Counted from the first letter of the stretch, positions 4,745-51,206 are shown. The stretch: DNA of 64,000 bases from an uncultured Gammaproteobacteria bacterium (GCA_964586925.1 CAZPJI010000004.1:1052-65051), one strand, 5' to 3'. Notes: a model not told the origin generated them from the sequence alone. Numbers and translations: made by a program.

Positions 4745-5758
4745 ATGGCTGCGGAGCTTGCCTACAGCGTCCATCGCCCCATCAGGCGCGGGGCTGCGCT
4801 GGTGCTGATTCTTGCAATCGGTGCTGCCGCCGCGCTGCTCATGTCCCTGTTCGTAGGCAGCGTATACGTGACCCCAGGGGCGGTGCTGGCTGCGCTCACC
4901 GGGCACGGCAACGCACTCGACCACACGCTTGTGCTGGACTTGCGCCTCCCCCGGGCCCTGGCTGCGTTCTCAACCGGTGCGCTCTTGGGGCTGGCCGGAG
5001 CTTTGATGCAGGTGCTGCTGCGTAATCCGCTGGCAGACCCGTACGTGCTCGGGGTTTCCGGCGGTGCGGCCACGGGCGCCTTGATCGCGCTGCTCGCGGG
5101 CCTCGGCACCACGGCGGCCACGGGCACGGCGTTCGCCGGAGCGCTCGTCAGCACGCTGATCGTCTTCGTGTTGGCGCATGGCCGCGGCAGCTGGGCGCCC
5201 ACGCGCCTGTTGCTCACCGGTATCGTCATGGCCGCCGGCTGGGGGGCGGTCGTCAGTCTGCTGCTGGCGCTCAGTCCGGATGCCACGTTACGCAGCATGC
5301 TGTTCTGGATGATGGGAGACTTGGCCTATCGCTCAGCCTGGCATTTGCCGCTGGTGGTGATGATGGCGGCATTGCTGATCGCAATGCCTTTTGCGCGCAC
5401 CTTGAACGTCCTCGCGCGTGGAGAGTTACCCGCCCGCGCCCTCGGCGTGCCGGTCCAGGCCGTCAACATCGGCATTTACCTCCTGGCATCGTTGATTACG
5501 GCGGTCGCAGTCGTGGAGGCCGGCACTATCGGTTTCGTCGGCCTTATCGTGCCGCACATGATCCGCCTCACCGGCGGCGCCGATCATCGTCTGGTATTGC
5601 CGGGCGCCGCGCTCGGCGGCGGCCTGCTTTTAACGGTCGCGGACATGGTCGCCCGCTCCGTGGCCGCACCACGCGCACTGCCGGTTGGCGTGATTACCGC
5701 AGCAATCGGTGTCCCCTTGTTTCTTTACTTGCTGTTACGCACGCGCACACTGAAATGA
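4745..5758 (+). CDS. FecCD/BtuC-family ABC permease (cobalamin or iron-chelate)
   Basis: LRLPRAL, QVLLRNPLADPYVLGVSGGA, FWMMGDL, GELPARALGV, IGFVGLIVPH, PVGVITA. Confidence 0.9.
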   Translation: MAAELAYSVHRPIRRGAALVLILAIGAAAALLMSLFVGSVYVTPGAVLAALTGHGNALDHTLVLDLRLPRALAAFSTGALLGLAGALMQVLLRNPLADPYVLGVSGGAATGALIALLAGLGTTAATGTAFAGALVSTLIVFVLAHGRGSWAPTRLLLTGIVMAAGWGAVVSLLLALSPDATLRSMLFWMMGDLAYRSAWHLPLVVMMAALLIAMPFARTLNVLARGELPARALGVPVQAVNIGIYLLASLITAVAVVEAGTIGFVGLIVPHMIRLTGGADHRLVLPGAALGGGLLLTVADMVARSVAAPRALPVGVITAAIGVPLFLYLLLRTRTLK

Positions 5759-15637: not shown

Positions 15638-17452
15638 TCATGAGGGAGACAGCACGGTGATGACCGGGTCATGATCCGAGGCACGATAAGGCGCCGCCGG
15701 GCCATGGCAAACGGGACCCCCGGCATAACCGAATCCACGCGCTTCATCGGCATCGATATGCCAGATGGCGGCGCCCCGCTCGTACTTCGCCAGCGCCGGG
15801 GAAAGGAAGACATAATCCAACCGCCCTGAACCGTAACTGCCGTTTTCCGTATATTCGGCGTCGCGGGCTTGCAACATCGGTTCCTCCTGCCAGCCATCTT
15901 GCAGCAATTCGCGGATAGCGGCCTCGTACGGATAGGCATTGAAGTCCCCGATGAGTGCCACGGCCGAAGTTGCAATGCCCGTCGGCCGCTGCCCGATCCA
16001 ACGCGCGAGATACGGTATGGCACGTGCACGTGCCCGCGCACAATGCCCCCCCCCATCCGAATTATCCAGATCCTTGCCGCAGCGGCTGCGCTTGGAGCGC
16101 AGATGCACCACGACGACGGTAAACGGCTTGCCGCCGGCGCGCGCACGGAAACTGGCGGCCAGAGCGGGACGCGTGAGCCCCTTGCGTACCGCACTGTCAT
16201 CGTCCGGGGGATCCAGCATGGCAACGTGACCCACACGAGCCAGACGGCTCGCATCATAAATCAGAGCCGGCGCAATAAGGTCCGTCCCGAGCCGTCGGGT
16301 TGGAGGGTGAACAAACCGATAGGCCGCCTTCGGCAGCGACCGGTTGAGCGCATCGACCAAGGTGCCAAGAGCGCCTTTCGGCCCATACCCGTTGTTCTCG
16401 ATCTCCTCCAGACCCGCAACCGTCGGCCGCATGGTTTGCAGCGCTGCGACCAGCTTGTCCGTCTGACACAGCCACTGCGAATGCGTACGCGCGCCGCGCT
16501 CGGTCGGAAAGGGCGATCCCGACGTTGCGCGATTGAAATAATTTTCGACATTGAAGGTCACCAGGCGCAGACCCTGCGGAAGTCCCAGCGACGCCCAGTC
16601 CGGTCGCGGGTTGGTCTTGCGCATCCGTCCGATGTGCGTCACTTCCAGCAAATAACGTCCGTAAGCGTGATAGGCCATGCCGGCGACGGATTCGAATACA
16701 TCACCGACACGCAGCGGGTGCAAGGCATTGAAAACCAGCTTGCCCAACTGCAGAGTTTGCGGTTGAGCCTTGCTGTTGCCGTGCAGCCAGATCTCCCGCC
16801 CGGCCGCAACCCGTATCAATTGACGTATGGCCGGGCCTGGAGTAGTCAACGCGGTGGGCGCATAGTGCTGTCCGCCTGCGTGCAGGCGCACTTCGCCGTA
16901 GCGAAGGAAATCGTCGAGATCGTCCACCGTGAGCGGCTGCCGGAGCTGAATGCGCATGCCGAGCCTGGCTTCCCATTGCCGTGCCGACTGCGGCAAAGAC
17001 ACGGTGATCGCCGGCGGCAATGCGAGCCGCCCACAATGTTCCATGCCTCGCGGGTACGCCAATTCCGGCACACCGTGAAAGGTCTGGTAACGAGCGGTGA
17101 ATGCGAGCCGCTGCCCGGAGGCAAAATTGTCCAGCGACTGCCGCCCGTCATAGACGAACGCGGCTTCGGTGGTGGCGGGGTCGTCATCCCACCCCGCCCG
17201 GGGCGTTTCGAGGAAAAATCCGTGCATACGCGGGAACACTGCAGTCACCACGCCTGTCACCCTGACCGTGTGGCCGGATCTTGCCGTTGCCAATGCATGC
17301 AATGGGGTGGCCCGCGCCCCACAATCGCCCCAGGCGAACCGGGCCCAACCCAGCACCGCCAACAGGATCGCCAAGCCGGCGCACACATGACGCCTTTTAT
17401 CAAAACCAGCCCGCGGTCTAACCACCTGAGTGCGGCGTCCCCTTTGTCTCAC
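15638..17452 (-). CDS. ExeM/NucH-like extracellular endonuclease (EEP fold with OB-like N-terminus); start may be GTG 17386
   Basis: GVVTAV..GFFL, TFNVENYFN, GLEEIEN, VVHLRSK, GDFNAY, GRLDY, ASDHDPV; hydrophobic signal-like N-terminus. Confidence 0.85.
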   Translation of the reverse strand: MRQRGRRTQVVRPRAGFDKRRHVCAGLAILLAVLGWARFAWGDCGARATPLHALATARSGHTVRVTGVVTAVFPRMHGFFLETPRAGWDDDPATTEAAFVYDGRQSLDNFASGQRLAFTARYQTFHGVPELAYPRGMEHCGRLALPPAITVSLPQSARQWEARLGMRIQLRQPLTVDDLDDFLRYGEVRLHAGGQHYAPTALTTPGPAIRQLIRVAAGREIWLHGNSKAQPQTLQLGKLVFNALHPLRVGDVFESVAGMAYHAYGRYLLEVTHIGRMRKTNPRPDWASLGLPQGLRLVTFNVENYFNRATSGSPFPTERGARTHSQWLCQTDKLVAALQTMRPTVAGLEEIENNGYGPKGALGTLVDALNRSLPKAAYRFVHPPTRRLGTDLIAPALIYDASRLARVGHVAMLDPPDDDSAVRKGLTRPALAASFRARAGGKPFTVVVVHLRSKRSRCGKDLDNSDGGGHCARARARAIPYLARWIGQRPTGIATSAVALIGDFNAYPYEAAIRELLQDGWQEEPMLQARDAEYTENGSYGSGRLDYVFLSPALAKYERGAAIWHIDADEARGFGYAGGPVCHGPAAPYRASDHDPVITVLSPS

Positions 17453-18335
17453 CCGGTCCGGCCCGTACCGGTGCGGGACCCACGATGAGGCTCTGTGGCG
17501 TGCGCTGCAATGTATCGACCAGGGTCTGAAGTCGTGCGCTCAGGGTCCGGAGGCGCGCGAGCAGTGCATCGAACCCCGGGAGCATGGTCTGGCTCGCCTG
17601 CGTTGCCAGTGCACCGGCGGCACTGGCGGCGCGGCCCACCGCCTGTATCGGTTGGCGGGCTTCTGAAACCAGCGTCTTGGCCTGTACCAACACTTTGCGC
17701 GCGTCACCGAGCGTGTCGTCCAATTGCGTGATCAACCCGGGCATTTTTTTCAAACTCGGGCGGACCGCTTTTTCGAGCTGCACCAGCTGGGCGCTCGCCT
17801 CGTCGATCTGTGCCAGGGTCGCGGAGATGTGTTCGCGGTTCTGTTTACCGAGCAGTTCATGGACTGATTTGAGCGTGTCCTTGAGACTGCTCATGATCGC
17901 GCTTGCGTTATGCATCAGACCCGACATGGCCCCGGACTTGAGTGGCAGGTGCGCCGGCGACGCGATACTGGTCTGAATATTATTCGGTCCGGATCCCAAG
18001 GTCAGCTCCACGGTTTTAGTGCCGATCAGCCCGGGTGACGCTACGGTAGCGTAGCTGCCCTCGGGCAGCGGAAAATTCGTGTCTACAGCGACAAGTACCG
18101 TGATGTGGCGGCGATTCCGGGGATCCAGTCCCACCTTGCGCACCCCACCCACCCGGACGCCGTGATAGCTGACCGGTGAGCCGGGACCCAGACCGGCCAC
18201 GCTGCCTTGCGCATCCAGTACGTAAGGGACGCGGCTGACTCCCGGCGCCATCATCCACCAGGCGACGAGTCCGGCGCCGACACCGAACACCGCGAGAAAA
18301 ATGATCGCGATCAGTGCGTGTGCCCTTTCTTCCAT
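17418..18335 (-). CDS. MlaD/MCE-domain protein
   Basis: N-terminal TM, VAGL..GSPVSYHGVRVG.V, PGLIG, helical region, PQSLIVG C-terminus. Confidence 0.9.
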   Translation of the reverse strand: MEERAHALIAIIFLAVFGVGAGLVAWWMMAPGVSRVPYVLDAQGSVAGLGPGSPVSYHGVRVGGVRKVGLDPRNRRHITVLVAVDTNFPLPEGSYATVASPGLIGTKTVELTLGSGPNNIQTSIASPAHLPLKSGAMSGLMHNASAIMSSLKDTLKSVHELLGKQNREHISATLAQIDEASAQLVQLEKAVRPSLKKMPGLITQLDDTLGDARKVLVQAKTLVSEARQPIQAVGRAASAAGALATQASQTMLPGFDALLARLRTLSARLQTLVDTLQRTPQSLIVGPAPVRAGPGETKGTPHSGG

Positions 18336-18357
18336 ACCGCAATCTCCTTGCCGTCCT

Positions 18358-18623
18358 AGTGTACCCCGCCGTGATTCCTGGCACTTTCAGAGCCCCCCAC
18401 AAGCGCCAGATCAAGGCGCAGCGCGCAGGGAATGGCCGGCGCCCTTGCCAAGCGCTGCAACGCAGAGCTGGCGCTTGTGGGGGACTCCCTTCGGGCGAGT
18501 CGCTGCAGCCCGGCTGCCGCGTTGCGCACGCTTGAAAGGGAATAACCCTTCCTGCGCGCACGCGCCTTGCATCCAACCTGCAGCGGCTCGCTGAAAGTGC
18601 CAGGAATCACGGCGGGGTACACT
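18358..18623. repeat. Palindromic MITE/REP-like element, copy 1 (266 bp)
   Basis: Perfect 33-bp inverted arms 18358-18390 (agtgtaccccgccgtgattcctggcactttcag) and 18591-18623; inner 16-bp stem 18394-18409/18468-18483; cUUCGg hairpin 18485-18499. Confidence 0.9.
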
Positions 18624-18635
18624 GGCGCTCCGGCG

Positions 18636-19439
18636 TTACGAGCGGCCCGCGTTTCTCAACGCGGCTCCGCGCGGCCCGGCGAGCAACCGGCGTATGGTCT
18701 CATGCATCTCCGCCTGATGCGGATCGGCTAATTCCTCGAGCGAACCCTCAAGCAGGATGCGTCCCTCCGCCAACACGACAGCCCTGTTGGCCAGGGCCGC
18801 CACGGAATCCAGATCATGGCTGACCATAACGATGGTCAGCCCCAGCTCACGATGCAGATCGGCCAACAAAGCATCGAGCTCGTGAGCGGTCACGGGATCC
18901 AGTCCCGATCCCGGCTCGTCGAGGAACAGCAGCTCGGCTTCCACGGCCAGAGCTCGCGCCAGGGCCACACGCTTGACCATGCCCCCCGAAAGTTCGGCAG
19001 GACGTTTATTGGCATCCTTCGGCTCAAGTCCGGTGAGCTCCAGCTTGTACATGACAACGTCGTGAATCAATTCCTCGTCGATGTGCTCCCCCATGGTGCG
19101 CAATTCACGCAACGGAAAGGCCACATTGTCGAAAACATTCAGTGCGCTGAACAACGCGCCTTGCTGAAACAGCATGCCCCAACGCTTGCGCAGCAGATGT
19201 TGCTCGTGCCAGTTCAGACGCTGCACGTCATAGCCGAAGACTTCCACCGTACCGGCATCCGGCTTGCGCAGACCGATCATTTCGTGCAACAGCGTCGTCT
19301 TACCGCCGCCACTCGTGCCGATGATCGCCAGCACGTCACCCCGGCATGCTGTCAAATTGATGCCTTTGTGCACCCAGCTTCCACCCAGGCGCGTGCGTAG
19401 ATCGCGAACGCGCACGATGACCTCTTTCTCTGCGTTCAT
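18636..19439 (-). CDS. MlaF-like ABC ATP-binding protein
   Basis: GTSGGGKT, LFQQGALFS, LSGGMVKRVALARAL, LFLDEP, SHD. Confidence 0.93.
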   Translation of the reverse strand: MNAEKEVIVRVRDLRTRLGGSWVHKGINLTACRGDVLAIIGTSGGGKTTLLHEMIGLRKPDAGTVEVFGYDVQRLNWHEQHLLRKRWGMLFQQGALFSALNVFDNVAFPLRELRTMGEHIDEELIHDVVMYKLELTGLEPKDANKRPAELSGGMVKRVALARALAVEAELLFLDEPGSGLDPVTAHELDALLADLHRELGLTIVMVSHDLDSVAALANRAVVLAEGRILLEGSLEELADPHQAEMHETIRRLLAGPRGAALRNAGRS

Positions 19440-20557
19440 AAGCCGACCCCGCTGAACAGGAAGCCGAACGCGACTTCGATGATGAGCACCAGGGCGAAGC
19501 CGACCACCACGGCGCGAGTGGTATGGGCGGAAATGCTCTGGGTGTCACGCGGCGCGGTAAGCCCGTAATAGGCGCTGGTGATGCCAATGATGAATCCGAA
19601 CAACGCGCCCTTGCCGACGCCGATGAAATAGTTTTCTATAGGCACGGAATCGGGGAACCACGCCAACCACATTTGCCATGTCACACCCAGCTGGGTGTTG
19701 GACAGGTACACTCCCCCGAGCACACCCCAGAAATCGATCCAGACCACCAGCAGGGGCATCACAATCGTCATGGCGAGCACACGCGGCATTACGATGCGCA
19801 ACGTGGGCGAAACACCCAGGGCGCGCAACGCGTCGAGTTCTTCGGTCAGACGCATTCCGCCTATGCTCGCCGTCGTCGCGCTGCCCATGCGGCCGACCAA
19901 TACGAGACCGGCGATGAAGGGCCCCAGTTCACGGGTGAATGCAAGCCCCACGGCTCCGATGATTTGTTCATTGAGCCCGAACTGGACCAGCTGAGCGGAG
20001 ATTTCGTACGTGAGCATCATCCCGACCAGGAGGCCGAGGAAAGCCAGCAGGATCAGCGACTGCGCACCTGCGCGATAAATCGTCGCAGACAATTCCCGTA
20101 GCGGGAAGAGCCGTGGATTTTCCACGCAGTGCCAAAGGTCGACGAAGAACTGGCCACCCAGCAAGCTGCTGCCTCCGGCCTGCTGCATGAAACCGTGTAT
20201 CGCACGGCCCATCGCGGGCAGGAAACGACGCAGGCGCGCGAAACGGCCGGGCACCGGCGGGCGGACCAGGGGATGTTTGCCCAGTCGCTCGAACACGGGG
20301 GCGTGCGCATCGCCCCCTGCAAGATTCTGTGGCAAACGCTCACCCCAGCAGTGCCAGAGTGCCAGAGCGCCGAGACTGTCGAGGTGGGACATGTCGGTCA
20401 GGTCCCAGTGGTCTGACGACCGACCCGTGACCGAGCGGAGTGTATGGAGAACGTCGTTTTCTTTTTCCAGCAGCGCCTGCAGCCGCCAATCGCCGCTCAC
20501 ACGAATATGCCGCGTTGATCCTGACTCCTCGATGTCTACTTGCGGAGCATCGTCCAT
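19436..20557 (-). CDS. MlaE-family permease with N-terminal STAS-like domain
   Basis: GDWRL...LDSLGAL; RELGP, GRMGSATTASIGGM..TEELDALRALG, PRVLA, TTRAVV. Confidence 0.9.
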   Translation of the reverse strand: MDDAPQVDIEESGSTRHIRVSGDWRLQALLEKENDVLHTLRSVTGRSSDHWDLTDMSHLDSLGALALWHCWGERLPQNLAGGDAHAPVFERLGKHPLVRPPVPGRFARLRRFLPAMGRAIHGFMQQAGGSSLLGGQFFVDLWHCVENPRLFPLRELSATIYRAGAQSLILLAFLGLLVGMMLTYEISAQLVQFGLNEQIIGAVGLAFTRELGPFIAGLVLVGRMGSATTASIGGMRLTEELDALRALGVSPTLRIVMPRVLAMTIVMPLLVVWIDFWGVLGGVYLSNTQLGVTWQMWLAWFPDSVPIENYFIGVGKGALFGFIIGITSAYYGLTAPRDTQSISAHTTRAVVVGFALVLIIEVAFGFLFSGVGL

Positions 20558-20683
20558 CCGGTCCCCGTTTTTGTGCCGGCCTTCGCTGGCAGTATAGAGC
20601 CTAAGCTGGAAGTTGCCCGGCGGATCGCATAACCTTGGCCGCTAACCAGAGGCCTCATCATCCCCGCAGTTACACTAGCAACC

Positions 20684-22234
20684 ATGCGCATCGATCCCGC
20701 CCGTGCCCCGACGAACTACCTGCTCGCGATAGCGACGGCATTGGTAACGGTCGCGTTCGCCCTCGGAGCCTGGAATCACGGCCCCATTCCCTCGATGGAA
20801 ACGCGATTTGCCGTAGCGGTGCAACAGATGCTTGCGCATCATCAATGGCTGATCCCGCAAAAAAACGGCCTGCCTTATATCGAATACCCACCGTTTTACT
20901 ACTGGATGGCCCTGGTGCTCGCGAAAGCGGGCCTGCCGGTGTTGCCCGCCATTCGTTTGCCCAACCTGCTCGCCCTGTGGATTTGGCTGGGGGCGCTGTT
21001 TGCGCTGTCGCGCCACCTGCTGCCGCAGTTGCCGCGCTGGTTGCTGCCGGTCCTGGCATTGGCGGCACCGGCCGCGCTATACAATTTCTTCGTCGCCCAG
21101 ACCGATGGCTGGCTGTGCGTCGGAGTGGCTTTGGGGCTGCTCGGCTATCTGCGCCACGAGGACGATAAATTCCCCTGGCTGCTATGGGGCGGCGCGGCAT
21201 TGGCGGTCTTCGCCAAAGGCCCCGTGGGCTTGGTTCTGATCGGGCTGGCGATCGCGGGAGATCTTTTGCTCGCCGTAGCAAGCGGCGCTTCCCGCTGGCA
21301 GGAGCTGCCGCGGCGTGTCTGGCGGCTGGCGCCGTTGCGCGGACTGGTGCTGTCCCTGGCCCCGCTGGCGGCCTGGTATGTGGCCTGCGGCTTCGTGGCC
21401 GGTTGGGATTTCGTACGCGCAGCGCTCGTCTACGATAATTTCACCCGCTTCGTGGCGGGCGCCGGTGGCCACGCCAATCCCTGGTGGATGTATGCCCAAA
21501 GCTTCTGGACGGATTATCTGCCCTGGTCGCTGGCCGCACCCTTCGGATTGGTGCTCGCAGCACGCCGCTTGCGGGAACCGGGCTTGCGCCTGGCCTTGGC
21601 CTGGACAGCGACGACAATCATCTTCTTTTCCATCTCCGCTTCCAAACAAAGCAAATACATTCTTCCCGCTGCCCCGGCGTTTGCCGCCCTGGCGCTCTAT
21701 GCGCTGGCGGCGTTAACGAGCCGCCGTCCGGCGTGGCTGTCGCGCGGCGTGGCCGCATGGAGCGGTTTTATCCTGTTGCTCTTTACGGTATTGGTCGGGG
21801 CCTGGCTGCCGCAGCTCGGTCCGCGCATCGATGACGATGCCGCCTGGGCCCGCCTGCGCGGCGTGGTTCAAACCACGCCCGACAGCAAAATATACATGTA
21901 CCGCTGGCCCCGTTCGCTCATTCTCTGGCAACTGCAACTGGGTGCGCCCATGCCCTGGTTCCGCGATGCCCGGGATTTGTATACGGCCGTTCATGACGGC
22001 CATCTGAAAGCCGGAGACTATCTCCTCGTATACCGCGATTCGCTGCGCAAGCATGCCGGGCCCTTTGCACTGGAGCCCGCACCCAGGCCGCCGTATTTCC
22101 GTCATGTGATGACAGTGAAATCCAAGGGCGGAATCGAGGTGTTCCGGGTCATGGCGGATGCGGCTTCGGCCCCTGTGCCACAAACCCCGGTAGCCCCGCC
22201 GCCACCCTGGTGGGCTCAATTCGACACGGACTGA
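20684..22234 (+). CDS. ArnT/GT39-like lipid-carrier glycosyltransferase
   Basis: ETRFA.AVQQM, W.IP.KNG.PY.EYPPFYYW, KGPVG, H..PWWMY, SKQSKYILP; multi-TM. Confidence 0.85.
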   Translation: MRIDPARAPTNYLLAIATALVTVAFALGAWNHGPIPSMETRFAVAVQQMLAHHQWLIPQKNGLPYIEYPPFYYWMALVLAKAGLPVLPAIRLPNLLALWIWLGALFALSRHLLPQLPRWLLPVLALAAPAALYNFFVAQTDGWLCVGVALGLLGYLRHEDDKFPWLLWGGAALAVFAKGPVGLVLIGLAIAGDLLLAVASGASRWQELPRRVWRLAPLRGLVLSLAPLAAWYVACGFVAGWDFVRAALVYDNFTRFVAGAGGHANPWWMYAQSFWTDYLPWSLAAPFGLVLAARRLREPGLRLALAWTATTIIFFSISASKQSKYILPAAPAFAALALYALAALTSRRPAWLSRGVAAWSGFILLLFTVLVGAWLPQLGPRIDDDAAWARLRGVVQTTPDSKIYMYRWPRSLILWQLQLGAPMPWFRDARDLYTAVHDGHLKAGDYLLVYRDSLRKHAGPFALEPAPRPPYFRHVMTVKSKGGIEVFRVMADAASAPVPQTPVAPPPPWWAQFDTD

Positions 22235-22240
22235 TCGACA

Positions 22241-23299
22241 GTGTCATCCGCGGCCAACGAACTCGATACCTGGCTCAATGGACTAGTCCATGACCGTGAA
22301 GTCTTTCCTCACCAACTGGACACCATTAATCGGCAACTATTACTCGTTCGCCTTACCGGGGAACAGGTCAGGGAAGCTGCCTTCCTCGACCAGCGTATTC
22401 TCGGCGGCCGGGAATCAGGGGCCTGGGTACCCCTGGATCGGGTTCTCGGTCTCACCGGTCCGGAGAACCATCCACGCGGTCTGATCCTGCATTGCGGGCA
22501 TGTCGGCTCTACCTTGATTTCACGCCTGTTGGGCGAATTGCCCCGGGTTTGGTCGCTGCGTGAGCCGCTCCTGCTGCAGGCACTTGCGGCGGAAGCGCGG
22601 GTATCGGGCACCCCATTGGCACGCTTGCGCACCAGCGAATTTCATGCCTTGCTGGCCCTGTCCCAGAGGCTGTTGGCCAAGGCACCGCCGGATCACCCGG
22701 ATGTCGTCATCAAACACACCAGCCTGACCGCCAACCTGGCGCCCTGGCTGCTCGGCCTGCCCCAGCCTCCGGCCATCGTTTGCCTGTGGATCCCGTTGGC
22801 AGATTATCTCGCCACCATGCTGCGTGAACCCTCACTGCGCGCCAGCGTGCGCGTTGCCGCCGGTGAATGGATCAAAGACCTTGTTCCGACCCTGGGTGGT
22901 TCCGCCCCGGTGCTGGGTGAATGCAACGATGCGGAATTGACTGCATTGAATTGGTGCGCCGCCCAGTTTGCCTTCGCGCAAGCCCGTGCGCTTGCGCCTG
23001 ATCGGTCGATCAGCCTGGATTTTTCTGATTTCCTCCGGGAGCCCGAACGGCGCCTCGGGTCATTGGCGCATCATTTCGGCATCGAACACACCGAACGCGA
23101 TCTCGGGCATGCGCTTTGCAGCCCCTGGATGCGCCGTTATGCCAAAGATCCTCGTTACCCGTTCGATTCCGCCGAGCGTGCCCGTGAACTCGCGGCGGCC
23201 AAGTCCAGGCTGGCCGATGAAATTGATACAGGCAGGCAATTCGCGCGGAGGCTGTGGCAACGCCTGCCCATGGCCAATGCTTTTACTGAGCCCGGCTAA
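22241..23299 (+). CDS. Hypothetical protein with sulfotransferase-like P-loop
   Basis: FLDQR, ILHCGHVGSTLISRLL, SLREP, VVIK, DFSDFL..PE, YAKDP; 6-bp gap after the GT gene. Confidence 0.6.
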   Translation: MSSAANELDTWLNGLVHDREVFPHQLDTINRQLLLVRLTGEQVREAAFLDQRILGGRESGAWVPLDRVLGLTGPENHPRGLILHCGHVGSTLISRLLGELPRVWSLREPLLLQALAAEARVSGTPLARLRTSEFHALLALSQRLLAKAPPDHPDVVIKHTSLTANLAPWLLGLPQPPAIVCLWIPLADYLATMLREPSLRASVRVAAGEWIKDLVPTLGGSAPVLGECNDAELTALNWCAAQFAFAQARALAPDRSISLDFSDFLREPERRLGSLAHHFGIEHTERDLGHALCSPWMRRYAKDPRYPFDSAERARELAAAKSRLADEIDTGRQFARRLWQRLPMANAFTEPG

Positions 23300-23312
23300 C
23301 GGGTAGACAGGA

Positions 23313-24383
23313 TCAGTCGCGCGCACCCAAGCGGCGGGCACGCTCGGATCTCTCCGCCGCGTCACGGCGCTGTAGATGCAGATTGTAGCTGGCCAAGGCT
23401 TCCGGCCATCCGGCCATTTCGCGGGCTACCAGTTCGGTGAGCATCTGAATATGCCCCGTATTGGCATTGAGAGCCGGTACGTAGACGAAACGCTTGCCAC
23501 CAGCCTCCAAAAAAACATCCCGGTAGCGCTGGGCAATTTCCTCCAGCGTCTCCAGGCAATCCGCGGCAAACCCGGGACAAACGACGGTAACGCTTTCGAT
23601 CCCCGCCTCGGCCCAACCCCGAAGCATAGCCTCGGTATCGGGCTGCAACCAGGTCGCGCGCCCGAAGCGGGACTGGAACGCCAAAGCCCACTCGCTGCGC
23701 GCAATACCCAGCCGCGTGGCAATCAGGCGTGCCGTACCCTGGCATTGGCAGTAATAGGGATCTCCCGCCTCCAATGTTGCGCGTGGCATGCCATGGAAAG
23801 ACAGGAGTAACCGTTCGTTGCGGCCTTCCGTCTCCCAGCTGCGCTCGATGCTGGCTGCTATGGCATCGGTGTAGCGGGGATAATCGTGGTAGTGGTTGAG
23901 AAAACGCACGGATGGCACCCAGCGCAGGCGGGCCAGTGCGGCGCCCACGGCATCGCTTGCGGCACCGGTGGTGGCACCGGAGTACTGCGGGTAGAGCGGG
24001 AGCACCAGTAATCTTTCCACGCCGGCCTGCATGAGGACACCCAAGGACCGTTCCACGCTGGGCTCGCCATAGCGCATGGCCAGGGCGACCGACACGGGGC
24101 CGTCCAGCCGCGTTGCCAGCGCGTCACGCAAGCCCTGCTCCAGCATCCGCGAATGCACCATCAGGGGCGACCCTTCCTCGGTCCATACCGAGCGATAGGC
24201 CTGCAGCGTCTTGCGCGGGCGCACACGGAGAATGACACCATGGAGCAACAGCCGCCGTAGTACTGTTGGTAATTCGATGACGCGCGGGTCCGCGAGAAAC
24301 TCGGCCAGGTACCGCCGCACGGCCCCGACTGTCAGGGCTTGCGGCGTGCCCAGGTTTACCAGCAGGACGCCGGCACGGCCCAT
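23313..24383 (-). CDS. hemH: Ferrochelatase
   Basis: GVLLVNLGTP, AMRYGEPS, LPLYPQYS, LLSFHG, FQSRFG..WLQP, PGF.ADCLETLEEI; ATG at 24383. Confidence 0.95.
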   Translation of the reverse strand: MGRAGVLLVNLGTPQALTVGAVRRYLAEFLADPRVIELPTVLRRLLLHGVILRVRPRKTLQAYRSVWTEEGSPLMVHSRMLEQGLRDALATRLDGPVSVALAMRYGEPSVERSLGVLMQAGVERLLVLPLYPQYSGATTGAASDAVGAALARLRWVPSVRFLNHYHDYPRYTDAIAASIERSWETEGRNERLLLSFHGMPRATLEAGDPYYCQCQGTARLIATRLGIARSEWALAFQSRFGRATWLQPDTEAMLRGWAEAGIESVTVVCPGFAADCLETLEEIAQRYRDVFLEAGGKRFVYVPALNANTGHIQMLTELVAREMAGWPEALASYNLHLQRRDAAERSERARRLGARD

Positions 24384-24447
24384 TTCTTCATGGCGATAGT
24401 CACTACGTCCCCAATAGCGACTCTTCATCGCGCGTCCTGAATCCCTC

Positions 24448-25857
24448 TTACAGGCTGTAGTAGAGATCGAACTCGACCGGGTGCGTGGTCATGCGCACGC
24501 GTTGCACGTCCTGGCGCTTGAGTCCGATGTAGGCCTTGAGCGCATCTTCGCTGAAAACGCCTCCAGCGGTAAGGAAAGCGTGGTCGTTCTCGAGCGCATC
24601 GAGCGCGCCTTCCAGCGAATAGGCCACTTCGGGGATGTCGGCCGACACCTCCGGCGGCAGGTCGTAGAGATCCTTGTCCATGGCCTCGCCGGGATGCAGG
24701 CGGTTGAGGATGCCATCCAGGCCGGCCATCAACAATCCGCTGAAAGCGAAATAGGGGTTGGCCATGCTGTCGGGGAAACGCACCTCGATGCGGCGACCCT
24801 TCGCACTGGGTGCGAACGGAACACGGATCGAGGCGGAACGGTTGCGTGCCGAATAAGCGAGTTTGACCGGAGCCTCGAAACCGGGCACGAGACGTTTGTA
24901 GCTATTGGTGGCGGGATTGGTGAGCGCATTCAGGGCAGGGGCATGCTTGATGATGCCGCCGATGAAAAACAGCGCCGTTTCCGAAAGCCCGCCATAGCCA
25001 TCGCCGGCGAACAGGTTTTGCCCACCCTTGGCCAGCGACATGTGCACATGCATGCCGTTGCCGTTGTCGCCGGTGAGCGGCTTGGGCATGAACGTGGCCG
25101 TCTTGCCGTAACGCTGGGCGACGTTCATCACCACGTACTTGAGGATCTGCACTTCGTCGGCCTTGCGCACCAAGGTATTGAGCCGCACACCGATCTCGCA
25201 CTGGCCTGCCGTGGCGACTTCATGGTGGTGGACTTCGCTTTCCAGTCCCATTTCTCCGAGAACCCGGCACATTTCGGAGCGGATGTCCTGCAACGAATCG
25301 ACCGGGGGCACCGGGAAGTAACCACCCTTCAGGCCCGGGCGGTGACCGAAGTTACCGTCCGGGTAGACGCGTCCGGAATTCCAGTTGGCCTCCATGGAAT
25401 CGACTTCGTAGAAGGCGCTGCCGACCGCGCTGCCCCAGCGCACATTGTCGAAGATGAAAAACTCGTTTTCGGGTCCGAAAAAGGCGATATCGGCGATGCC
25501 CGTCTGCTGCAGGTAGGTCTCGGCGCGGCGCGCGATCGAGCGCGGGTCGCGCTCATAGCCGGACAGGGTAGTGGGCTCGACCACATCACAGCGCAAGACC
25601 AGCGTCGGATGGTCCATGAAGGGATCCATTACGGCGCTGGCGACGTCCGGCATCAACACCATGTCGGATTCGTTGATCTGCTTCCAGCCGGCGATCGAAG
25701 ACCCGTCGAAAGCCTTGCCTTCCTCGAAGAAATCCGCATCCACACTGGTCGGTGTTACCGTCACGTGCTGCTCTTTGCCCCGTGTGTCGGTAAAACGCAG
25801 ATCCACAAAATGTATCTCGCCCGCGGCGATCCGCTTGAGAATGTCATCGGCACTCAT
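24448..25857 (-). CDS. glnA: Type I glutamine synthetase
   Basis: [61 protein letters not shown] adenylylation site; 469 aa. Confidence 0.98.
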
Positions 25858-25897
25858 GAAAACGGCTCCAGAAATAATCAAGAATGAGGCAACCCCC

Positions 25898-26076
25898 AGT
25901 GTAGTGTTTCGCGATTCCTGGTGCTTTCAGAGCCCTCCACAAGCGCCAGATCAAGGCGCAGCGCGCAGGGAATGGCTGTCGCCCTTGCCAAGCGCTGCAA
26001 CGCAAAGCTGGCGCTTGTTAGGGGGCTCCCTTCGGGCGAGTCGCTGAAAGCACCAGGAATCGCGAAACACTACACT
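25898..26076. repeat. Palindromic MITE/REP-like element, copy 2 (179 bp)
   Basis: Perfect 33-bp inverted arms 25898-25930 (agtgtagtgtttcgcgattcctggtgctttcag) and 26044-26076; inner 113 bp closely similar to 18391-18502. Confidence 0.9.
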
Positions 26077-26173: not shown

Positions 26174-27067
26174 ATGACTAACCATCCGCCAAAAACTTTC
26201 CAGGAGTTGGTCCTGCGATTGCGCCAATACTGGGCCGAACAGGGTGCCGCGTTGCTGGAACCCTACGATATGCCGATGGGTGCCGCGACCTTCCACCCCG
26301 CGACCTTTCTGCGCGCGCTCGGGCCACGTCCCTGGCACGCCGCTTTCGTCCAGCCCTGCCGCCGGCCGACAGACGGACGCTACGGGGAAAATCCCAACCG
26401 CGGGCAACAATATTTCCAGTTCCAGGTGCTGTTGAAGCCGGTGCCCGACGATTTCCAACAGCTTTACCTGGGCTCCCTGGTGGCGCTGGGCTTGGACCTC
26501 GGAGTCCAGGACGTGCGTTTCGTCGAGGACGATTGGGCCTCTCCCACGCTGGGCGCCTGGGGGCTGGGCTGGGAAGTCTGGCTGAACGGCATGGAAATCA
26601 GCCAGTTCACTTATTTTCAGCAGGTCGGCGGCATCGAATGCCGGCCGGTCACCGGCGAAATCACTTACGGCCTCGAGCGCATCGCGATGTACTTGCAGAA
26701 CGTAGACAGTATGTACGACCTTATATGGCAGGAAACCCCCGCCGGCACCTTACGCTATGGCGATCTGTACCTCGACAACGAACGGGAGCAATCGCACTAC
26801 AACTTCGAACTGGCCGACACTACCCAGCTCAACGCGCAATTCGCTGCTGCTGAGCGCGAGCACACAAGGCTCCTCGAAGCCAGCCAAATACTTCCTGCCT
26901 ATGAAAGGACCCTGGAGGCCTCGCATGCCTTCAACCTGCTCGATGCACGCCGCGCCCTATCCGTGACCGAACGGCAAAACCACATCCTGAGGGTCAGGCG
27001 CATGGCCACCGCCGTAGCCAAAGCGTGGCACGCCGCTGAAGCCGGGAAGGAGTCGCCGGTCTCATGA
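26174..27067 (+). CDS. glyQ: Glycyl-tRNA synthetase alpha subunit
   Basis: [59 protein letters not shown]. Confidence 0.97.
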
Positions 27068-30485: not shown

Positions 30486-34018
<3,533 letters not shown>

Positions 34019-34102
34019 GGAAGCCCGAAATAGGCTTGGGGGAAGTAATCGCCCGGCTTACTGTCCTGCGTCATCCTGTTTGCCTGCGTATAGCATGGGT
34101 TG

Positions 34103-35206
34103 CTACAGCCGCATAGGCATAATGACATAGCGGTACCGTTCACTATCAGGCGCGCCCAGAAGTGCGCTGGAATTGGAATCCGTAAACTGGAATTCTACGG
34201 TCTCGCTGTCGAGAGCGGCTAAAGCGTCCTGCAGATAAGTCGCGTTGAAAGCGATAACCAGACGCTCACCTTCGTAGTTTGCGGTGACCTGTTCCTCGGC
34301 TTCCTCGTTCTCCGGATTGTGCGCAGCCAGCTTGAAGCCCTCGTCTGAGGCTTCCAGCCGAATACCACGGAATTTCTCATTGGCCAGGATCGCTACACGG
34401 GTGAGCGCTTCACGCAGGGGGCCGCGGTCCGTCACCAGCTTTTTGTTGCAGCTCTTGGGAATAACGCGATCATAATCAGGGAATTGGCCATCAATAAGTT
34501 TGGTCGTCATGACCTGTGTTCCCAGGTCAAAGCGGGCGTGGGTTTGAGTCAGCGTTACTTCAATCTGTTTTCCGGCTTGGCCGAGAAGACGCTCCAATTC
34601 CATAACCGCCTTGCGGGGCAGAATAGCCGCCTGCTCCCCCTCTACCTCGGGATTCTGCTCCGCATCGCATAAGGCAAGACGGTGCCCATCAGTAGCGACG
34701 GCACGCAACCGTTCTGGAGATAATTCCAGCAGGAGCCCCGTCAGATAGTATCTGACGTCTTGTTGTGCCATTGCGAACGCACTGCGCTTGAGCAAGTCGG
34801 ACAAGACACTGCTTTCGATACTGAAGCGCAAGCCGCTGTCCAGGTCTCCGACCGTAGGAAATTCATCCACGGGCAACGTGGTCAAGACGAAACGGCTCCG
34901 TCCGGAACCAAGCCGCAACCGGCCTTCCTCCTGGCTGAGCTTGATGCTGGCTCCCTCCGGGAGTGCACGGCATATATCCAAAAGTTTACGCGCGGGTACC
35001 GTGGAAGCTCCGGTCTTCTTGCCGCCCTGCGACAAACGTGCATTCATTTCCACTTCAAGATCAGTCGTTACCAGGCGGATTGCGTTATCCGCTTCCACTT
35101 CGATGCAAACATTACCAAGGATGGGAATTGTTTGCCGACGTTCTACAACACCAATGACGGCTTGCAAGGGTTGAAGGATTTCTTCTCTTAATAATTCAAT
35201 TTCCAT
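34103..35206 (-). CDS. dnaN: DNA polymerase III beta clamp
   Basis: VERRQTIPILGN, TDLEVE, QDVRYYLTG, ATDGHRL, GQFPDY, YVIMPMRL. Confidence 0.98.
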   Translation of the reverse strand: MEIELLREEILQPLQAVIGVVERRQTIPILGNVCIEVEADNAIRLVTTDLEVEMNARLSQGGKKTGASTVPARKLLDICRALPEGASIKLSQEEGRLRLGSGRSRFVLTTLPVDEFPTVGDLDSGLRFSIESSVLSDLLKRSAFAMAQQDVRYYLTGLLLELSPERLRAVATDGHRLALCDAEQNPEVEGEQAAILPRKAVMELERLLGQAGKQIEVTLTQTHARFDLGTQVMTTKLIDGQFPDYDRVIPKSCNKKLVTDRGPLREALTRVAILANEKFRGIRLEASDEGFKLAAHNPENEEAEEQVTANYEGERLVIAFNATYLQDALAALDSETVEFQFTDSNSSALLGAPDSERYRYVIMPMRL

Positions 35207-35385
35207 AATTTCATCCTGTCATAGTAATTAGTGCTGTGAATATCGTAAAAACCCTAATTTAAAGTTAAAAAACAACAAGTTATAGATTTTCTTCTATTGT
35301 ATAAGTTGACCATTTTCGGTTGATGTTTTGTGGATAACTTCAGTCTTTTTTCCGATGCACAGTTTATCCACAAGTCGTCCCGTAT
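35207..35385. other. Putative oriC (dnaA-dnaN intergenic region)
   Basis: Two perfect DnaA boxes, TGTGGATAA 35329-35337 and TTATCCACA 35364-35372, next to a strongly AT-rich tract (about 35207-35320) in a GC-rich genome. Confidence 0.75.
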
Positions 35386-36717
35386 TCATACCGAAAGTTG
35401 TTTCACCAGATTTTGGTAGTCAGAATCCATTTGCGCATCACTCGCCCTTAGCTCGCGTATTTTGCGGCAGGCATGCAAAACGGTGCTATGGTCCCGGCCG
35501 CCGAATGCATTACCGATTTCAGGTAGGCTATGGCGGGTTAATTCCTTGGCGAGAGACATGGCGATTTGCCGTGGCCGGGTAACAGAACGTGAGCGATTCT
35601 TGGAGCACAGGTCTGCAGTACGTATGCGGAAATAATTAGCGACCGTGCTCTGGATATTATCGATGGTAACCAGCTTCTGCTGTACGGCCAGGAGATCCCG
35701 CAAAGCTTCCCGGGCCAGATCGAGTGAGACCGGCCGCCGGGTAAACCGGGCTGTGGCAAGGACGCGCCTAAGAGCCCCCTCAAGTTCGCGGACGTTGGAG
35801 CTGATGCGCTGGGCGAGGAAGAAAGCCACGGATTCCGGCAATTCGATGCCCTGCTGCTGGGCCTTGCTCATGGCGATCGCGACCCGTGTTTCGAGTTCGG
35901 GTGGATCGACCGAAGCAATCAGACCCCATCCAAAGCGGGATTTCAGACGTTCTTCCAACCCCGAGATTTCTTTCGGGTAGCGGTCGCTGGTCAACACGAT
36001 TTGGTGCCGTCCCTCCATCAGCGTGTTGAAGGTGTGGAAGAACTCTTCCTGAGAACGCTCCTTATTGGCGAAGAACTGAATGTCATCTATGAGCAGCACG
36101 TCCAGGGAACGGTATTGCTCCTTGAAGCTGTCGATGCGCCCATGCTGCAGAGCCCGGATCATATCGTTGACGAAGCGTTCGGATTGCACGTAGGCGACGC
36201 GTCGACGGCCCCCGTCCTGCTCACTCAAATGGTTTGCCAGGCTATGCATAAGGTGCGTTTTGCCCAGACCCACGCCGCCGTAGATGAACAAAGGATTGTA
36301 TTGTCCGCCCGGTTGCTCGGCTACCAGGAGGGCGGCGGCACGTGCCATCTGGTTGGATGGCCCCTCGATGAAATTAGCAAAACGGTAGGCTGGGTTGATC
36401 GGGTTTCCAGGCACCGGTGGCCGATCCCGGACGCTGCGACGCTTGTTGGCGTCCGGCGGCAGGCCTTCTTCTTCACCGGAGCCCAAGCCGAGTTCTACAC
36501 GTGCGTTGGGATCGGAATCGAATTCTTGTGTCAGAGCCCTGATCTTGTCCAGGAAGCGGGATTCAACTTCCTTGAGGACAAATCGATTGGGAGCCAGCAG
36601 CCGCAGTGAGCCGTCGTTTTCTACCGCATGCAATGGCCGCAGCCAGAGGTTCAGATCGCGCTCTTCACACTCCTGTTCCAGGCGGTTAAAACAACGTTGC
36701 CATAGGCTTGCGGCCAT
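35386..36717 (-). CDS. dnaA: Chromosomal replication initiator
   Basis: YNPLFIYGGVGLGKTHL, LLIDDIQF, RLKSRFGWG, NVRELEGAL, GGRDHSTVLHA. Confidence 0.99.
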   Translation of the reverse strand: MAASLWQRCFNRLEQECEERDLNLWLRPLHAVENDGSLRLLAPNRFVLKEVESRFLDKIRALTQEFDSDPNARVELGLGSGEEEGLPPDANKRRSVRDRPPVPGNPINPAYRFANFIEGPSNQMARAAALLVAEQPGGQYNPLFIYGGVGLGKTHLMHSLANHLSEQDGGRRRVAYVQSERFVNDMIRALQHGRIDSFKEQYRSLDVLLIDDIQFFANKERSQEEFFHTFNTLMEGRHQIVLTSDRYPKEISGLEERLKSRFGWGLIASVDPPELETRVAIAMSKAQQQGIELPESVAFFLAQRISSNVRELEGALRRVLATARFTRRPVSLDLAREALRDLLAVQQKLVTIDNIQSTVANYFRIRTADLCSKNRSRSVTRPRQIAMSLAKELTRHSLPEIGNAFGGRDHSTVLHACRKIRELRASDAQMDSDYQNLVKQLSV

Positions 36718-36872
36718 TGCCTGAAAACTGTCGGGAAAGGCCTCACAGTCTAACTCCCATGCGTCCCCCGATCTACTGCTTCGAACCTTGACATGAGGCC
36801 TGTGGACTGGTCTAATGTGCGACCAGCTTTAAAGCATGTGTGAGCGCGTCGCCGCGCCGATCAAGGTCCAAC

Positions 36873-37007
36873 ATGAAACGAACCTACCAGCCCAGCAAAA
36901 TTCATCGCAAACGTACGCATGGATTCCGTGCACGGATGGCTACCAAAGGGGGCCGGCTTGTGCTCAAGTCCCGCCGTGCCAAGGGGCGTGCCCGCCTCAG
37001 CGCCTGA
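36873..37007 (+). CDS. rpmH: 50S ribosomal protein L34 (absent from ORF track)
   Basis: Hand translation: [44 protein letters not shown]. Confidence 0.97.
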
Positions 37008-37347
37008 CGCCAAGTCCGGCTACGGTTTCCCCCGTGCGGCACGCCTGACCCGTCCGTCTGAGTTCACGCGTGTATTCAAACAAGGGCACCGCAGCCACAC
37101 ACGCTACTTTATCCTTGTTGCGACCTCAGGCGGCGTACGGGCCAGATTGGGTCTTGCCGTCGGTCGCAAGGCTTCACCGCGGGCGGTTGCCCGGAACCGG
37201 ATCAAACGGATAGTTCGTGATGCATTTCGCCGTACACCATTGCCGTCCATGGACTTCGTCGTCGTGGCGCGCAGCGGTTGCGGACGTGTGGACTCAGAAG
37301 CGTTGCGCAAGGATCTCCTTGTGGCCCTGGAAGCATTGAAGCAATGA
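36988..37347 (+). CDS. rnpA: RNase P protein component (GTG start 36988 inferred)
   Basis: FPRAARL....[23 protein letters not shown] (RNR motif), MDFVVVAR. Confidence 0.92.
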
Positions 37348-37568
37348 GATCCGTGATCATCGCCTGCATCCGCTTTTACCAAATCGTGTTCAGTCCCTGG
37401 CTGGGCAATCATTGCCGCTACTCCCCCACCTGCTCCGCCTACGCCATCGAAGCGGTGCGCAGGCACGGTGTCGTCCGCGGTCTGATCCTGGGCATCGCCC
37501 GGATCAGCCGTTGTCATCCTTTCCACGCCGGAGGCCATGATCCGGTGCCGCCGAGAACACATCACTGA
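37344..37568 (+). CDS. yidD: Membrane protein insertion efficiency factor
   Basis: YQIVFSP..G.HCRYSPTCS.YA.EA...HG...G......RI.RCHPF..GG.DPVP. Confidence 0.95.
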   Translation: MRSVIIACIRFYQIVFSPWLGNHCRYSPTCSAYAIEAVRRHGVVRGLILGIARISRCHPFHAGGHDPVPPRTHH

Positions 37569-42218: not shown

Positions 42219-42263
42219 GAATATAGCTCTTCGAGGGTTTGTACGCAGGATACATGAGCAGAC

Positions 42264-43001: not shown

Positions 43002-43010
43002 AGTCGTTCG

Positions 43011-43614: not shown

Positions 43615-43665
43615 AGGTCGCGCTGCCCCCTCGAATGGGGACGGTAATGGCCGGAGGGAAAGTGG

Positions 43666-47361: not shown

Positions 47362-47372
47362 GCGCGTAGCCG

Positions 47373-49131: not shown

Positions 49132-49141
49132 TCAAGCCGGG

Positions 49142-51141: not shown

Positions 51142-51206
51142 GGGTCGCAAGGACTAATTTTAACCAGTACCGCTACTATGACACGACTTTCAGGAGAAAA
51201 TGCTCA

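Follow-up and report, generated by a model that had tools for sequence, protein, structure and literature searches.

Palindromic elements with free but mirrored arms in uncultured Gammaproteobacteria, probably a new family of mobile MITEs

Introduction

Two palindromic elements, here called c1 and c2, lie in a 64,000-nucleotide (nt) stretch of DNA from an uncultured Gammaproteobacteria bacterium (GCA_964586925.1, CAZPJI010000004.1:1052-65051), which we refer to at its full length as the window. The arms of each copy are perfectly complementary to one another and differ between the copies, which raises the questions of what kind of element this is and how one arm follows the other when its sequence changes. 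We report that c1 and c2 are probably insertions of a non-autonomous, non-coding palindromic transposable element (a MITE, short for miniature inverted-repeat transposable element) belonging to a small, previously uncatalogued family of uncultured Gammaproteobacteria. As a family the element is new, but its kind is known: it is a palindromic MITE that targets TA/CTAG and behaves most like the Correia elements, and its notable property is that arm sequence is free but mirrored. Judging from the pattern of substitutions, the complementarity of the arms is probably kept by hairpin-templated correction.

Results

Two copies with a shared fold and mirrored arm differences

One copy, c1, is a full-length form, and the other, c2, is a short form. 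We write c1 with hairpin A first, on the + strand; the genes flanking it are on the - strand. The parts of the two copies are as follows.

18358..18623, + strand: c1, full-length form, 266 nt, in the order arm, hairpin A, small hairpin, hairpin B, arm'
18358..18390, + strand: c1 left arm, AGTGTACCCCGCCGTGATTCCTGGCACTTTCAG, complementary at 33/33 positions to 18591-18623
18391..18482, + strand: c1 hairpin A, with basal stem CCCCCCACAAGCGCCAG / CTGGCGCTTGTGGGGG
18483..18501, + strand: c1 small hairpin; its cTTCGg loop is of the UNCG type here and reads C-GNA-G on the complementary strand
18502..18590, + strand: c1 hairpin B, a diverged inverted copy of A, absent from short forms
18591..18623, + strand: c1 right arm, exact reverse complement of the c1 left arm
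25898..26076, + strand: c2, short form, 179 nt, in the order arm, hairpin A, small hairpin, arm', without B
25898..25930, + strand: c2 left arm, AGTGTAGTGTTTCGCGATTCCTGGTGCTTTCAG, complementary at 33/33 positions to 26044-26076
25931..26024, + strand: c2 hairpin A, about 93 nt
26025..26043, + strand: c2 small cTTCGg hairpin
26044..26076, + strand: c2 right arm, complementary at 33/33 positions to the c2 left arm

These coordinates and sequences are exactly those given by an earlier reading of the window made from the sequence alone (the sequence-only reading), and the features it had described hold up: the 33-nt arms are 100% complementary within each copy, and a folded interior with a cUUCGg loop, consisting of hairpin A and the small cTTCGg hairpin, is common to both copies at ~94% identity. 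A comparison position by position also bears out its count of differences between the arms of c1 and c2, which fall at 9 of 33 positions (7-12, 15, 25 and 26) and are all mirrored in the partner arm. The arms are spaced by 200 nt in c1 and by 113 nt in c2. In c1, the basal stem of hairpin A encloses a conserved core, CAAGGCGC…GCAGGGAATGGCCGGCGCCCTTGCCAAG…GCAAC. Hairpin B, which matches A only partially and with several gaps, is an old inverted duplicate of A; it is bounded by direct repeats (TCGCTG…TCGCTG), and the short form is what a deletion between these repeats in the long form would leave.

No other long, close inverted repeats occur in the 64 kb, where the next best ones outside the elements are 20-21 nt long at 76-80%, and the window holds only these two copies of the element. 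Both strands fold far better than shuffled controls (z = -15.1 for c1 as RNA and z = -12.1 for c2 as DNA), and the sense-strand RNA of c1 reaches -199 kcal/mol (z = -15). The palindromes are not an assembly artefact, because independent metagenome contigs (L001, L003 and L004, from Logan and JGI) are 100% identical to the window over the parts that they cover. Contig look-ups for P0001 and P0006 yielded no independent full-length assembly of c1 and c2. These contigs stop within the 33-bp arms. We dismissed such breaks as a sign of high copy number, since a perfect 33-bp inverted repeat can by itself break de Bruijn assembly.

Ten copies at ten sites

Eight more copies were found in metagenomes and metagenome-assembled genomes (MAGs) of uncultured Gammaproteobacteria, giving ten distinct copies of 178-269 nt at ten different sites that span at least five genome backgrounds. 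A scan of a genome collection with the conserved arm pattern returned 16 single matches, 15 of them due to chance and one true: L008, from a Gammaproteobacteria MAG, is a full-length copy as shown by nhmmer. Three copies (L021, L022 and L023) came from a metagenome scan with an interior pattern, and four (L025, to which L026 is identical, L027, L028 and L029) from a protein search with the translation of a spurious open reading frame (ORF), followed by contig look-ups. An exhaustive profile search with an alignment of such pseudo-ORFs gave 69 cluster representatives at E<=1e-3, and for 20 of these the match reached E<=1e-10; the strong matches are clearly translated elements, and at least one weak match, a TPR-like protein, is false. 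The family is thus real, wider than the ten copies sampled and modest in size. A distant blastn search of a plasmid collection gave no match, and a single unpaired pattern match on viral contig L024, which the hidden Markov model (HMM) of the element did not confirm, was attributed to chance.

A further hairpin occurs on one of these contigs. Downstream of pdxJ, L023 carries at 5505-5625 a stand-alone long hairpin (-77.7 kcal/mol) whose core is homologous to the hairpin A core (nhmmer E = 6e-5) and whose outer stem, GAGTGTGCGATTC…, is reminiscent of the arms. This hairpin may be a distant relative of simpler build, which would hint at a wider superfamily built around the A core.

Empty alleles and target sequence

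Comparison with relatives uncovered clean empty alleles at three sites, those of c1, c2 and L025. The genome L030 (GCA_975903485.1), fully syntenic with the window and with a MlaD 84% identical to that of the window, lacks both window copies. Its mlaF-mlaD spacer measures 34 nt against 300 nt in the window (34 + 266), and its glyQ-glnA spacer 137 nt against 316 nt (137 + 179), so that the lengths agree with clean absence exactly or within 1 nt. The mlaF-mlaD copy is also absent from the more distant relatives L032-L034. The best filled/empty pair is L025 against L035-L037, with GspF 99% identical and flanks at 93-97% nucleotide identity. In these three relatives the empty gspE-gspF allele reads …TGA GCGCCGGGAGGAG C-TA-G CGCCGATG, and the filled allele of L025 reads …TGA T C-TA-[GTGTAC…GTACAC]-TA-G CGCCGATG. 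A further candidate empty site, L025 compared with L027, was rejected; the two differ by a 1.6-kb indel carrying two genes and the element, and its boundaries are uninformative.

Insertions are exact, at 5'-C-T^A-(G)-3', with TA on both sides in some copies (4/10). Among the ten copies, the A side of the target has C at -2 in 10/10 (p = 9e-6) and T at -1 in 8/10 (p = 5e-5), and the other side has A at +1 in 7/10 (p = 5e-4). In c1 the target flank is as follows.

18356..18357, + strand: CT, the target flank of c1 on its A side; the opposite flank begins with G (18624) in place of the family consensus A

The sequence-only reading had seen no target-site duplication, which is half right: the flanks are TA…TG at c1 and CA…TA at c2, and TA…TA at other copies. 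The rebuilt L023 junction, …CTA TAG C ATG…, consists of the era stop codon, one base and the recO start codon. At L029 (194-488), a perfect 13-bp inverted repeat surrounds the copy (CCGACAGGCTGCT, element, AGCAGCCTGTCGG), which thus sits at the CTAG centre of an existing 26-bp perfect palindrome. Guide-like homology between the variable box of the arm and the flanking target was considered and discarded, as none was seen, identical boxes occurring in unrelated flanks. The seven nucleotides directly to the left of the L008 copy (651-657) read GTACACT, the right terminus of the element itself; either a second copy may have left them behind, or the target may resemble the end of the element.

Compensated pairing and fast-changing arms

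An alignment of eight copies analysed with RNAalifold gave 82 consensus pairs. Double-sided compensatory changes occur at 26 of these, against 2-4 when the partners are slid by 1-3 columns, and 95.6% of the structure cells are paired, against 35-43% under the same displacement; none of 500 shuffles matched the observed pairing or the observed count of double changes. Compensated pairs are found in all main helices: in the arms (16/33 pairs), in the A stem (helix 2, 97% paired, with double changes at 4 pairs), in the small hairpin and in the B stem (columns 141-153/222-234 and 172-174/202-204). Among the six full-length copies, 33 of 108 pairs are compensated. The covariation first noticed between c1 and c2 therefore generalises to the comparisons of eight and ten copies, and the family neither ends at two copies nor loses its covariation in a larger alignment.

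Over all ten copies, 313 of 330 arm cells pair (94.8%), though the identity of arms between copies drops to about 50%. Conservation within the arm is limited to the tip AGTGTAC and the inner end CTTTCAG, and in the element as a whole only the 7-bp tips, the inner 7 bp and the hairpin A core are conserved in sequence. The GATTCCTGG box of c1 and c2 is replaced in L025 and L027 (…CCACTCTTGGAGGTA…) and again in L029 (…CCACAGATATTGACCCA…), each time with the replacement mirrored in the partner arm. The loop of the small hairpin is UUCG in 7/10 copies, UGCG in 2/10 and CUCG in 1/10; on the gene-sense strand it is a C-GNA-G DNA triloop in 9/10 copies, with UNCG on the opposite strand.

In almost all pairwise comparisons of copies, the arms have diverged faster than the interior has. 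Between c1 and L022, the arms show three mirrored changes and one single change, hairpin A and the small hairpin together show none (0/115), and hairpin B shows three substitutions and one indel (about 3.5%); at this divergence, independent double hits on one pair are expected only about 0.02-0.05 times. Pair swaps of the transversion type (C-G to G-C, T-A to A-T) are approximately as common as swaps of the transition type, which can pass through a wobble. Mismatches in the arms show no strand bias (7 G·T vs 5 C·A), and a tally of the pair table of the eight copies over the whole structure gives 13 G·T and 9 A·C cells. Two-step compensation slows the evolution of a stem relative to neutral sites and does not speed it. 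Taken together, the faster arms, the types of swap and the symmetry between strands therefore favour copying from arm to arm in one step. Positions 25 and 26, in L021, L022, L023, L025, L027 and L028, hold 7 of the 17 arm mismatches, which points either to a tolerated wobble or bulge or to mismatches that survived transposition.

Insertion sites, orientation and neighbouring genes

Copies typically occupy operon junctions, after one gene's stop codon and ahead of the start codon of the next. The sites are as follows.

c1: between the mlaF stop and the mlaD start
c2: between the glnA start and the glyQ start, divergent
L008: in a divergent region, 27 nt before ridA
L021: between the ybeY stop and the corC start, the latter 16 nt off
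L022: between the stop of a DsbB-like gene and the start of a putative glycosyltransferase gene, the two genes being identified by eye in the translations
L023: between the era stop, overlapping the arm by 2 nt, and the recO ATG, 3 nt off
L025: between the gspE stop, 3 nt off, and the gspF ATG, 6 nt off
L027: between the end of a transporter gene fragment and a convergent cold-shock gene
L028: between the stop of a uvrY-like gene and uvrC, whose start codon is apparently within the arm
L029: genomic context unassigned

Seven copies have a co-directional gene upstream, and in every one of them the B side is the side from which transcription enters (two-sided p ~0.016); c2 and L008, in divergent regions, are uninformative on orientation. 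The genes that adjoin different copies are functionally unrelated to one another, and this lack of a common theme argues against a pathway-specific riboswitch or leader.

Within the window, c1 lies between the stop of a gene for an mlaF-type ABC ATPase (18636-19439, - strand) and the start of an mlaD-type gene (17418-18335, - strand), and c2 lies in the divergent region between glnA (24448-25857, - strand) and glyQ (26174-27067, + strand). The DNA that separates the two copies consists of core genes (hemH, glnA, mlaEF). Farther along, 30486-39283 carries the origin-region genes gyrB, dnaN and dnaA (- strand) and yidC (+ strand), and the GC skew of the window switches sign at about 36-42 kb. 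This gene set and the switch in skew therefore place a chromosomal replication origin inside the window, 10-18 kb from c1 and c2, and both copies are on the replichore whose gene-sense (minus) strand is the lagging-strand template.

The window also contains, at 39309-51150, a biosynthetic cluster of the lipid or aryl-polyene type, with ketosynthases, a ketoreductase, an ApeI-like dehydratase, an acyl carrier protein and an AMP-ligase, together with a glycosyltransferase, an acyltransferase and a halogenase-like flavoprotein.

Coding capacity, RNA families and mobilising enzyme

The element has no credible coding capacity: its lengths (178-269 nt) keep no reading frame, frames without stops are found on one strand and the other alike (9/10 vs 7/10), and Pfam gives no match to it. 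A 'bridging ORF' that would keep translational coupling, as seen in L025 and c1, was considered and dropped for the same reasons, the frames being unconserved and stop-free on both strands. Gene callers nevertheless turn the element into 'hypothetical proteins' of 58-180 amino acids (P0001-P0005, P0162-P0170), and the final ~50 residues of a 356-residue membrane protein (P0221) derive from it.

Rfam searches of the whole window at gathering score, and around c1 by E-value, gave no matches; the best sub-threshold scores went to microRNA-precursor models (E >= 0.25), which are generic hairpin matches. The search of Rfam that the sequence-only reading had proposed thus assigns the element to no family, and its option of a structured RNA family, in the sense of a dedicated RNA gene or riboswitch, finds no support, given this result and the unrelated neighbours. 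A consensus scan of the element detected no promoter, terminator or IHF site. The TGGCAC in the c1 arm points inward and is not conserved among the other copies. An IHF site and a Dam GATC in hairpin A were rejected as candidates; read by eye, they are partial matches at best and unconserved in L025 and L027.

Pfam scans of the predicted genes of the window matched housekeeping families only, with no transposase, RAYT or integrase, a few short ORFs having no match and a few stretches being unscanned; the statement that no transposase is visible stands for the Pfam matches of these genes. A Y1_Tnp gene of the RAYT/IS200-like kind exists in L035. Its product of 118 amino acids has the HUH motif and lacks the C-terminal tyrosine region, the gene occupies the same place in filled and empty genomes, and the termini of the element are found nowhere in L035; we therefore rejected it as the mobilising enzyme. 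The arms carry no GTAG-type REP motif. With neither this motif nor a RAYT gene accompanying the element, and with the L035 gene unlinked to it, the earlier comparison with REPIN elements and their RAYT enzymes finds no support.

Reverse transcriptases were seen on two of the contigs. In L025, 3446-4393 encodes one of the group II intron type (RVT_1 + GIIM), after an RtcA-like gene truncated to 190 amino acids that is intact in L027 (343 amino acids), and at 1-830 of L035 the truncated Y1_Tnp gene adjoins a reverse transcriptase.

Alternative explanations

The covariation could reflect selection on a folded transcript, that is, on an RNase III/RNase E processing or stability module between cistrons or on a regulator in the 5' untranslated region, mobile or not, whose stems are kept by ordinary compensation. 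We consider this possible but doubtful. In its favour, covariation extends to all four helices, with conserved loops and junctions, every co-directional context (7/7) shows one and the same orientation, stop and start codons closely bracket the copies, the folding energy of the sense-strand RNA is as given above (-199 kcal/mol, z = -15), and bcr1 and the Correia elements are precedents for structure at the RNA level and for RNase III action (PMC3184786, PMC2649163). Two-step compensation does not, however, predict arms that outpace the interior, or mirrored double changes that outnumber single ones between near-identical copies. On neither strand do G·U-compatible and A·C mismatches differ in frequency, and the strand that carries the UNCG loop is antisense to the flanking genes. 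The unrelated neighbours and the empty Rfam result also speak against a functional transcript, as do the dispensability of module B and a perfect helix of 33 bp, which far exceeds the usual need of a functional RNA. A different route, which we think unlikely, is movement as single-stranded DNA by a HUH (Y1) enzyme of the IS200/IS605 or RAYT type that reads the folded hairpin and inserts 3' of a short CT, with the orientation bias reflecting the lagging-strand template. The conservation of arm structure without arm sequence would fit such an enzyme, as would the asymmetric target (10/10 and 8/10 on the CT side, weaker on the other) and the uniform orientation, the gene-sense strand being the lagging-strand template in the window. 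So would the repeat of the right terminus GTACACT in the 7 nt adjoining the L008 copy, the small loop, which on the gene-sense strand in 9/10 copies is a C-GNA-G DNA triloop, a type of established stability, and the existence of the Y1_Tnp gene in the L035 genome. That gene, as described, is truncated, unmoved between filled and empty genomes and unaccompanied by any terminus of the element, and the window has no Y1 gene. The ends of IS200/IS605 and REP elements have separate subterminal hairpins, not a single stem formed from both ends, and the GTAG-type REP motif is lacking. Moreover, TA on both sides at CTAG (L025 against L035, and L021, L023 and L029) is the product of a DDE enzyme that duplicates TA.

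Site-specific recombination sites, whether of the integron attC type or another folded-DNA substrate (Xer, IMEX-type), are very improbable. Such sites do conserve structure over sequence, and the elements resemble them in being palindromes, perfect or imperfect; the ends, however, are AGTGTAC…GTACACT with no R''/R' core (RYYYAAC / GTTRRRY), the window has no integrase, the interval between c1 and c2 consists of core genes that are present in L030 without the elements, and copies occur singly at unrelated loci. That the palindromes arose by chance, are an assembly artefact or form a small protein-coding gene is less credible still and can practically be set aside. Metagenome contigs do break within the arms and gene callers do put an ORF of 58-107 amino acids across the element, but identical sequence from independent assemblies, ten copies each with conserved internal structure and folding z-scores of -12 to -15 speak against chance and artefact. 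Lengths that are not multiples of three, unconserved frames, stop-free frames as common on the other strand, and substitutions that track base pairing and not codons speak against a gene.

A proposed mechanism for the MITE and points against it

The mobile-element option of the sequence-only reading gains from ten unrelated intergenic sites, three empty alleles, the CT^A(G) preference, the absence of coding capacity and the lack of a transposase in the window. We propose that a transposase acting in trans would cut at the conserved tips and integrate at TA, the target used by IS630/Tc1-mariner enzymes. A change in one arm would be copied to the other in a single step when the folded element is exposed as a single strand, through template switching at the quasi-palindrome in the course of replication or through hairpin repair. 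Intramolecular template switching at quasi-palindromes turns imperfect inverted repeats into perfect ones (PMC7202029). One-step copying would let the arm sequence drift fast without loss of pairing, and selection for a foldable element may contribute. Between pairing selection and templated copying, the argument from rates favours templated copying.

Several observations weigh against this reading of the element as a MITE with templated arms. No autonomous partner, and no transposase with matching ends, is present in the window or in the fetched loci, and IS630/Tc1-mariner transposases bind specific inverted-repeat sequences, a requirement that sits badly with arm positions 7-26 varying freely. 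The two target flanks are unequal (G at +2 in only 5/10 copies against C at -2 in 10/10), unlike a symmetric CTAG rule. TA stands on both sides in 4/10 copies (L021, L023, L025 and L029), the others having TA with CA, TG or TT; as the inner A/T is invariant at 19 of 20 ends, insertion at T^A without duplication would fit the flanks equally well as TA duplication. Copy number per genome looks low, since 21 kb of L030 and 12-14 kb each of L032-L034 contain no copy. With regard to the arms, L025 and L027, at different sites, are both mismatched at positions 25 and 28, which implies that transposition can leave mismatches in place and that correction takes time. Template switching has been shown mostly for short hairpins and not for arms 113-200 nt apart. 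Finally, the interior may simply be under strong constraint, with pairing the sole requirement on the arms, which would weaken the argument from rates.

There is also a small chance, in our view, that the ends of the element are specified by structure and not by sequence, such that it moves as a folded single strand and one arm is re-synthesised or corrected from the other in each cycle or often. The enzyme would then read only the 7-nt tips, the inner 7 nt and the hairpin A core. If true, this would be a mechanism of bacterial transposition or maintenance not described for MITEs, and it would explain the hypervariable mirrored arms, the uniform lagging-strand-template orientation and the GNA-type DNA loop.

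Predicted effects on host genes

A co-transcribed 33-bp stem would be a substrate of the RNase III type, as for Correia elements, and the element could uncouple or alter the expression of flanking genes, as Correia elements do. At three sites, a putative promoter, a Shine-Dalgarno sequence or a start codon would be affected. Upstream of glnA, the segment next to c2 is the following.

25888..25897, - strand: GGGGGTTGCC, putative -12 half of a sigma-54-like promoter upstream of glnA

In L030 (2700-2730), which has the empty allele, the sequence upstream of glnA reads GGGGCACGGGGGTTGCC, and the window reads …CTACACT directly followed by GGGGGTTGCC. In L030 this region contains GGGGCAC-GGGGG-TTGCC, a good match to a sigma-54 -24/-12 promoter about 45 nt before the ATG, and c2 is inserted exactly between GGCAC (-24) and TTGC (-12) of the GGCAC-N5-TTGC motif that is intact there. 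In the region of window positions 25886-25897, the upstream half of the sigma-54-like motif has drifted to AGGGTT. It thus appears that c2 splits the -24 and -12 boxes of a sigma-54-type glnA promoter.

The filled gspE-gspF allele (L025, 10001-10012) lacks the 13 nt GCGCCGGGAGGAG, which include the gspF Shine-Dalgarno sequence and are present in the three empty alleles (L035, 5976-6000) directly beside the insertion point. For the L028 copy (1817-1995), the PGVY motif of UvrC is found about 40 nt beyond the element, so that the uvrC start codon, called at 1969, appears to lie in the arm; by this reckoning, uvrC seems to owe its first codons to the insertion.

Discussion

Comparison with known elements

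The element falls into the broad class that includes the Correia, ERIC and RUP elements. Correia elements (CREE/NEMIS) of Neisseria are non-coding palindromic MITEs of 100-160 bp with terminal inverted repeats of roughly 26 bp, which insert at TA and sometimes at CA, some copies ending in CA instead of TA; they have long and short forms differing by an internal segment, and no transposase is known for them (PMC2649163). Most are found between genes or on the 5' side of them, they are co-transcribed, and in the RNA their paired repeats make a hairpin to which RNase III binds or which it cleaves (PMC2649163). The window family is likewise palindromic, non-coding, flanked by TA (or CA), intergenic and present in long and short forms. 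It differs from Correia elements in its host clade, in the lack of any sequence similarity, in its larger size (178-269 nt) with a conserved four-helix fold, in having no detected IHF site or outward promoter, and in a copy number that so far looks low, compared with >100 per genome for Correia in Neisseria. Correia repeats, moreover, fall into a few fixed sequence variants, whereas arm positions 7-26 of the window family vary freely and in mirrored fashion.

The bcr1 element of the Bacillus cereus group is MITE-like, about 155 bp long and transcribed, varies in distribution between strains, and keeps a cruciform-like structure through compensatory base-pair changes (PMC3184786). Upkeep of a fold by compensatory change is therefore not new as such, as it has already been reported for bcr1 (PMC3184786). 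Unlike the window family, bcr1 is flanked by 5-bp direct repeats and not by TA, its hosts are Firmicutes, and there is no report of arms that evolve faster than the core.

IS630 and ISY100 integrate at TA and duplicate it (PMC2170065). The C-TA-[element]-TA-G arrangement at CTAG in L025 compared with L035 resembles the product of this IS630/Tc1-mariner group. IS630 reportedly prefers CTAG, a preference that Tenzen et al. are said to have described in 1990, and RUP and Nezha are examples of MITEs of the IS630/Tc1-mariner family. Unlike members of that family, the window element has an asymmetric target flank, and neither an IS630-type transposase nor a full-length insertion sequence with its ends was found in the window or the fetched loci. 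REPIN elements or REP doublets, which depend on RAYT (a Y1 HUH enzyme), are likewise short palindromic intergenic repeats whose hairpin is kept across copies; the window family differs from them in lacking a GTAG-type REP motif and a RAYT flanked by the element (in the window and L035), and in its larger size, several modules, TA flanks and low apparent copy number. ERIC (IRU) elements of enterobacteria are imperfect palindromes of ~127 bp in transcribed intergenic regions, with insertion and deletion variants and orientation-dependent effects on mRNA. They have no known sequence similarity to the window family, and their copies are highly conserved in sequence and are not known to show mirrored variability of the arms.

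Significance

For annotation, the element represents an uncatalogued MITE family in an uncultured gammaproteobacterial lineage, one that breaks short-read assemblies and yields spurious 'hypothetical proteins'. Its copies lie within sensitive junctions (mlaF-mlaD, era-recO, ybeY-corC, gspE-gspF, uvrY-uvrC) and upstream of glnA, and are therefore likely to alter the expression of operons. With ~95% of arm cells paired despite fast drift at positions 7-26, the family offers a natural test case for distinguishing selection on structure from hairpin-templated concerted evolution.

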